Sequence record: PV660448
From: Escherichia phage LF82-4
Reading direction: 5' to 3' (one strand)
DNA: 64,000 bases
Both the position numbers and the translations under genes were made by a program. Of the stretch, positions 53,604 through 54,059 are shown in pieces. Numbering within the stretch: position 1 is the first letter of the stretch; the number at the start of each line of letters is the position of its first letter. Below the pieces are notes generated by a model. It was not told where the DNA came from and searched no databases. It saw only the letters and a list, made by a program, of their open reading frames with translations.

Positions 53604-54059
53604 TTATTTTAGATCTTCGGCCCAATCTAGTTTTAAGGGTTCTTTGTATTCACGGTCGAGAATAACCGGAATAGCTACATCACCACTGAATGATAGTTGG
53701 CCAACGTTATATGATAACGTTATATGTGGAGTGTAGTCGTCGAAGTCATGAGTAGCACCTAAAGCCCGTGCATACTGATGACGACATCTAAGATATTCGG
53801 AATCAAGAACTAAAACCAGTACAGCGCCGTCGTCAGTTTTCCATACCTCAAAGTGTCCTGATTCGGCAATAGAATAACTACCACTAGATGTAGTATATGG
53901 TATGTTTACACGTGAATAGCAAATTGTCGAATGAAGCTTTTCACGTGGTACTGGATTAGGAATTCTTAATTTACGCTGGAGATCTTCCAGCGCATCAAGT
54001 GTTAATTCTGAAAACTTAGCTGCGACGTAGAGGCCTTGTGAAAAGTCCTCAAATTTCAT
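53604..54059 (-). CDS. 2H-phosphoesterase-fold protein at the position of T4 57B (Acb1-like cyclic-nucleotide phosphodiesterase)
   Basis: 151 aa; two H-x-T/S-x motifs (HSTI and HITL); immediately upstream of 57A as T4 57B. Confidence 0.7.

Follow-up and report, generated by a model that had tools for sequence, protein, structure and literature searches.

The acb1 locus and its gene order

The stretch of DNA analysed here (the window) comprises 64,000 nucleotides of Escherichia phage LF82-4 (sequence record PV660448), and carries on its minus strand the following genes:

54294..55028, minus strand: gene 1, dNMP kinase (Pfam DNMK, E 1.4e-96)
54059..54289, minus strand: gene 57A, tail-fibre chaperone (Pfam GP57, E 2.4e-24)
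53604..54059, minus strand: acb1 (gene 57B) coding sequence, recognised by its open reading frame and by matches to Pfam Acb1, PDB 7T26 and the T4 and RB69 proteins
53239..53526, minus strand: ipI, internal protein I (Pfam IPI_T4, E 1.4e-50)
52867-53175, minus strand: a further internal-protein gene (PHROG 2667), downstream of ipI

The acb1 open reading frame runs from ATG to TAA over exactly 53604-54059 on the minus strand and encodes 151 amino acids. An earlier reading of this DNA from its letters alone (the sequence-only reading) had claimed a 151-residue protein at the T4 57B position of an RB69-like genome, and all three parts of this claim are borne out: the frame is present, the T4 arrangement 1 - 57A - 57B - ipI surrounds it, and nucleotide identity to RB69, a Mosigvirus, reaches 96.8% over 53000-55100. 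The gene had also been described as lying immediately upstream of 57A, which holds in plus-strand coordinates only; on the coding strand acb1 comes directly after 57A, whose stop codon shares bases with the acb1 start codon (TAATG, 54057-54061), leaving no intergenic space upstream of acb1. In T4 both the order 1 - 57A - 57B - ipI and the overlap with 57A are the same as here, whereas the gene content downstream of ipI is unlike that of the window. In RB69 gene 57B is likewise flanked by 57A and gene 1, but it is followed by ORF156c and then by ipI, while in the window ipI follows directly.

The gp3 gene lies on the same strand, upstream of gene 1 and 57A, and the order 3 - 1 - 57A - 57B is kept in T4, RB69, LF82-1, Acinetobacter ZZ1 and Phi1, as well as in Aeromonas, Vibrio D525, Cronobacter and Klebsiella phages; in Vibrio phage phiKT1024, the most distant homologue aligned, the order 1 - 57A - 57B is not kept. 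The order 3 - 1 - 57A - 57B - internal-protein gene is that of T4 and is maintained across distant Straboviridae. The product of T4 ipI inhibits the GmrS/GmrD restriction enzyme. The adjacent acb1 and ipI genes have been described as an anti-defence cluster (Hobbs et al., 2022, PMC9117128).

The LF82-1 series of Escherichia phages shows 100% nucleotide identity to the window over 53000-55100. Differences from these genomes are found in the tRNA region, where a GIY-YIG open reading frame of 222 amino acids (51085-51753, minus; Pfam GIY-YIG, E 1.3e-6) with about 80% DNA identity to the T4 segB homing endonuclease region adjoins tRNA-Met (51795-51866); this frame is missing from the otherwise near-identical LF82-1, which has tRNA-Arg there. 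At about 51870-51960 the window is also without a 516-bp hypothetical gene that in LF82-1 (942-1457 of the compared locus) and RB69 (RB69ORF151c) is located between tRNA-Met and tRNA.2, and it thus does not match any LF82-series genome exactly, even though the acb1 region is completely identical.

Family assignment and homologues

An activity cleaving 3'3'-cGAMP has been purified from T4-infected cells by activity-guided fractionation, and its source was shown to be gene 57B, whose product was named Acb1; deletion of the gene removed the activity from lysates (Hobbs et al., 2022, Nature 605:522, PMC9117128). The sequence-only reading had taken T4 57B to be Acb1, correctly according to this work, and had suggested an alignment to T4 57B as a check. 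In this alignment T4 gp57B (NP_049750.1, 152 residues as against 151 here) matches the window protein without gaps at 128 of 151 positions (85% identity, E 2e-102). The Pfam Acb1 family (PF23474, cut-off 27 bits) is matched over profile positions 1-144 of 144 with 196.8 bits (E 1.8e-58), and the best solved structure is Acb1 of PDB 7T26/7T27 (E 7.9e-59, residues 9-148). This full-length family match, together with the conserved functional residues detailed below, supports the Acb1-like phosphodiesterase reading that had been proposed, and the gene is an orthologue of T4 57B.

A second reading takes the protein for an RNA ligase or RNA-repair 2H enzyme, that is a LigT-like 2'-5' RNA ligase or cyclic phosphodiesterase. 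It draws on the label of PHROG 755, which is 'RNA ligase', on RefSeq re-annotations that give 57B of T4, RB69 and many relatives the same name, on a weak match to Pfam 2_5_RNA_ligase2 (E 0.012), and on the 2H fold that is common to the LigT and Acb1 families. Against the LigT/2'-5' RNA ligase family (PF13563), however, the window protein scores 16.1 bits, below the cut-off of 27 and over residues 69-131 only, compared with 196.8 bits from end to end for Acb1; moreover, the T4 orthologue was identified by fractionation as a cGAMP-cleaving enzyme whose deletion abolishes the activity of the lysate (PMC9117128). The 'RNA ligase' label is a family name transferred from a distant similarity within the 2H superfamily, and we regard an RNA ligase or RNA-repair function as highly improbable. 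A search with the protein in NCBIfam, a library without an Acb1 model, gave no match.

Gene 57B is called 'RNA ligase' or 'hypothetical protein' in most public records (T4 NC_000866, RB69 NC_004928, LF82-1 and others). Acb1 was characterised in 2022, and these labels are an annotation error that continues to propagate.

Of 50,697 phage records searched by tblastn, 1469 contain acb1 homologues, among which 118 have at least 99% identity. RB69 gp57B (AAP76056.1, annotated as 'conserved hypothetical protein') is identical to the window protein at 149 of 151 positions (99%), and an identical protein is found in many public Mosigvirus genomes, including that of phage Mizar, in which it is annotated as 'anti-CBASS Acb1-like protein'. 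The acb1 of the window is thus an already known, ordinary member of a characterised family. At a greater distance, Cronobacter phage Cronuts and Klebsiella phage Tauntaun (Pseudotevenvirus-like) encode Acb1 homologues of 207 amino acids (1959-2582 in both loci), lengthened at the C-terminus by about 55 residues (HIEHRGDKWVILNHDRTKELGEYDSKAAAEKRLRQIEYFKHNG) that T4 and RB69 Acb1 lack; the position of the lid tryptophan is not conserved in these two proteins.

Catalytic and ligand-contacting residues

Acb1 takes a 2H phosphoesterase fold (PMC9117128). A single-sequence AlphaFold2 model of the window protein reached a mean pLDDT of 39.5 and was unusable; a compact 2H phosphoesterase fold would nevertheless be expected from the 64% identity, over the whole domain (residues 9-148), to the FBB1 Acb1 crystal structure 7T26. 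Two motifs that the sequence-only reading had named, HSTI and HITL, were both recovered by reverse-complementing the sequence:

53922..53933, minus strand: first catalytic motif, H43-S44-T45-I46 (codons CAT TCG ACA ATT on the reverse complement), corresponding to T4 H44/T46; H43 and T45 invariant
53715..53726, minus strand: second catalytic motif, H112-I113-T114-L115 (codons CAT ATA ACG TTA on the reverse complement), corresponding to T4 H113/T115; H112 and T114 invariant

For T4 Acb1 it has been reported that the tetrad H44, T46, H113 and T115 carries out metal-independent cleavage 3' of adenosine by way of a cyclic-phosphate intermediate, the H44A/H113A protein serving as the catalytically inactive control, that Y12, W74, F107 and W147 stack on the bases, and that E141 reads the adenine N6 while a C-terminal lid shuts over the ligand (PMC9117128). 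In the window protein the residue numbering is shifted by one: the HxT/HxT tetrad consists of H43, T45, H112 and T114; Y11, W73, F106 and W146 correspond to the aromatic residues that stack on the bases; and E140 corresponds to the residue that reads the adenine. These nine residues are the same as in T4; the lid differs from that of T4 by a single D-to-E change, and none of the 23 of 151 positions at which the two proteins differ is a named functional residue. Every catalytic or ligand-contacting residue named by Hobbs et al. (2022) is kept.

The conservation extends well beyond T4. An alignment of 11 homologues, which includes proteins of Acinetobacter, Aeromonas, Vibrio, Cronobacter and Klebsiella phages and reaches down to 29% identity, has Y11, H43, T45, H112, T114 and E140 among its invariant positions. 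Acb1 of the Erwinia phage FBB1, solved in the apo form (7T26) and in complex with 3'3'-cGAMP (7T27), has both HxT motifs and shares with the window protein a tyrosine, an aromatic residue, a glutamate and a tryptophan at the contact positions; it differs in a one-residue insertion after position 78 and in having F for W73 and Y for F106, both conservative aromatic swaps.

By homology to the T4 and FBB1 enzymes, the product would be a small, metal-independent 2H phosphoesterase that binds cyclic di- and trinucleotides with at least one adenosine (3'3'-cGAMP, cUA, cAAA). The aromatic residues Y11, W73, F106 and W146 would form a U-shaped pocket for the ligand, with E140 reading the adenine N6 and the C-terminal residues closing over the ligand as a lid. 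The tetrad H43/T45/H112/T114 would then make the 2'-OH attack the 3'-5' bond beside the adenosine, and the signal would be linearised through a 2',3'-cyclic phosphate intermediate. Host CBASS effectors would not be activated, and abortive infection would be prevented.

Substrate range and role in infection

T4 Acb1 and nine homologues have been shown to cleave adenosine-containing cyclic di- and trinucleotides and not cGG or cA4 (PMC9117128), and protection against CBASS in vivo has been shown for T4 Acb1 (Hobbs et al., 2022, PMC9117128, and later work). In the literature searched, no paper with an assay of the RB69-type protein was found, and we infer the enzyme activity, the substrate range and the anti-CBASS effect of the LF82-4 allele from its likeness to these characterised proteins.

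It could be argued that the protein is a true Acb1 with its main role against another cyclic-oligonucleotide pathway, such as type III CRISPR signalling by cA3, or with a shifted substrate range. T4-type Acb1 degrades cA3 in addition to the CBASS dinucleotides, and 23 positions differ between the window protein and T4 Acb1. Acb1 activity can also be a liability: according to published work, degradation of cA3 by Acb1 makes phages with intact acb1 sensitive to type II Panoptes, a restriction that could select for an altered specificity, while deletion of acb1 in T4 left type I Panoptes defence unchanged. On the other hand, the named ligand-contacting residues are all identical to those of T4 and the lid carries only the D-to-E change, the phenotypes of the T4 knockout are CBASS-specific, and the nine additional homologues examined by Hobbs et al. 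(2022, PMC9117128) all cleaved both 3'3'-cGAMP and cAAA. A different main role or a shifted range is accordingly judged very unlikely. A more specific form of the idea, in which the Mosigvirus allele has moved its substrate range, for instance towards less cA3 cleavage that avoids triggering type II Panoptes or towards signals spared by T4 Acb1, would, if true, mean that evolution has tuned an anti-defence enzyme in response to guard systems, and is given very little credence.

For an anti-CBASS enzyme, the core counter-defence role that the sequence-only reading had assigned is too strong a term: T4 can do without acb1 on hosts that have no CBASS, and the gene becomes important only where CBASS is present. 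In later work, T4 57B/acb1 was found to be dispensable on K-12 and depleted on a CBASS-expressing host.

Expression of acb1

There is no room for an acb1 promoter of its own, because the acb1 ATG overlaps the 57A stop codon, and this TAATG overlap suggests co-transcription and translational coupling of 57A and acb1. In a scan of 52800-55900, the stretch from the acb1 start to the 57A start contained nothing resembling a promoter; over the whole of this interval neither promoters (9 found against 9.5 expected) nor terminators (4 found against 2.0 expected) exceeded the shuffled expectation. A weak terminator-like hairpin at 54325-54341 has 5 pairs and was not relied on. Two candidate promoters are located further upstream:

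55056..55083, minus strand: candidate T4-type middle promoter upstream of gene 1 (MotA-box-like AATCGCTTCTA, 11-nt spacer, TATAAT)
54644..54651, minus strand: candidate late promoter TATAAATA inside gene 1, an exact consensus match

The T4 site aligned with the middle-promoter candidate reads AATGCTTCA followed by TATAAT, and T4, RB69 and the window all share the same -10 hexamer. The late-promoter candidate precedes 57A by 355 nt and acb1 by 585 nt, and lies within a 12-nt block (TATAAATAATAT) that is kept in T4, RB69 and the window between diverged flanks. The window has 6 copies of the motif TATAAATA where 8.2 would be expected, and as this count is not above chance, it is conservation in T4 and RB69 that supports the copy in gene 1. 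Expression of T4 57B has been reported as mainly middle and late, with which these motif matches fit. The two candidates are the likely source of the 57A and acb1 transcripts, and acb1 most probably belongs to one transcription unit with 57A and gene 1, the first gene of the unit, read from such middle-type and late promoters.

The stem-loop promoter cassette between acb1 and ipI

The sequence-only reading had further proposed that acb1 is preceded by a stem-loop promoter cassette of its own. Such a cassette does exist, but it sits 3' of the acb1 stop codon and upstream of ipI:

53555..53590, minus strand: PeSL-type cassette, an early promoter (GTTTAC-N18-TACTAT) with a stem-loop

On the coding strand it begins 14 nt past the acb1 stop, in the arrangement TAA-TTTTCACAAAACA-GTTTAC-ATAAGGATGATGGTGTGT-TACTAT-CATCC, with the ipI ATG about 35 nt further on. 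The -35 element GTTTAC occupies 53585-53590 and the -10 element TACTAT, which is of the extended type (TG), occupies 53561-53566; a hairpin of 12 bp (53555-53581, dG -15.4, z -3.8) overlaps the spacer and the -10 hexamer. In T4 a cassette of the same architecture separates 57B from ipI, and the sequence of its stem is another one.

PeSL (promoter-early stem-loop) cassettes have been described for T4-type phages (Arbiol et al., 2010, PMC2839356; Comeau et al., 2014, PMC4122927). The cassette of the window resembles them in the combination of a sigma-70-like early promoter (GTTTAC as -35, TAnnnT as -10) with a stable hairpin, in being placed between small non-essential genes with many copies on one strand, and in lying at an indel boundary between close relatives. 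It differs in that its hairpin extends over the spacer and the -10 hexamer and has no T-run behind it; for this reason, terminator activity is not evident from the sequence. For the early promoter motif GTTTAC-N17-19-TAnnnT the window has 24 matches where 2.9 would be expected, nearly all of them on the minus strand. PeSL-type cassettes, in which this promoter is combined with a stable hairpin overlapping its spacer and -10 hexamer, are found at 53555-53590, 53196-53235 and 52816-52855 (minus) and at about 20 further sites between 4.7 and 53.6 kb, each of them before a small gene; the two small genes that come next in the window are likewise preceded by this architecture.

As a promoter of acb1 the cassette at 53555-53590 was rejected: it is on the same strand as acb1 but 3' of its stop codon, and the near-identical cassette that follows 57B in RB69 stands before a different gene, ORF156c. 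From this placement in RB69 it follows that the cassette goes with the downstream internal-protein gene, and in the window it serves ipI, not acb1. It may terminate acb1 transcripts or stabilise their 3' end, and with respect to acb1 it at most marks that end.

The region downstream of the cassette varies between close relatives. When window positions 52807-53530 are compared with positions 1486-2285 of the RB69 locus, ORF156c, found in RB69 between 57B and ipI, is not present in the window, which has instead the extra internal-protein gene at 52867-53175. The internal-protein genes beside acb1 in the window and in RB69 all begin with MKTYKEFI and are preceded by a near-identical cassette, and this shuffling of internal-protein genes fits recombination at the cassette and leader repeats.

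Significance for T4-type phages

That the gene, as the Mosigvirus (RB69-type) orthologue of T4 57B/acb1, encodes an anti-CBASS phosphodiesterase and is co-transcribed with genes 1 and 57A is considered very probable on the evidence of homology, residue conservation and gene arrangement. Its correct name is acb1 (anti-CBASS phosphodiesterase), and the finding has little significance beyond annotation. By analogy with the characterised enzymes, phages that carry acb1 would be expected to overcome CBASS systems that signal through adenosine-containing cyclic di- or trinucleotides, and the carriers include therapeutic candidates against E. coli LF82 or Shigella; by the same analogy, acb1-carrying phages may be sensitive to guard systems that detect the loss of cA3, such as type II Panoptes.
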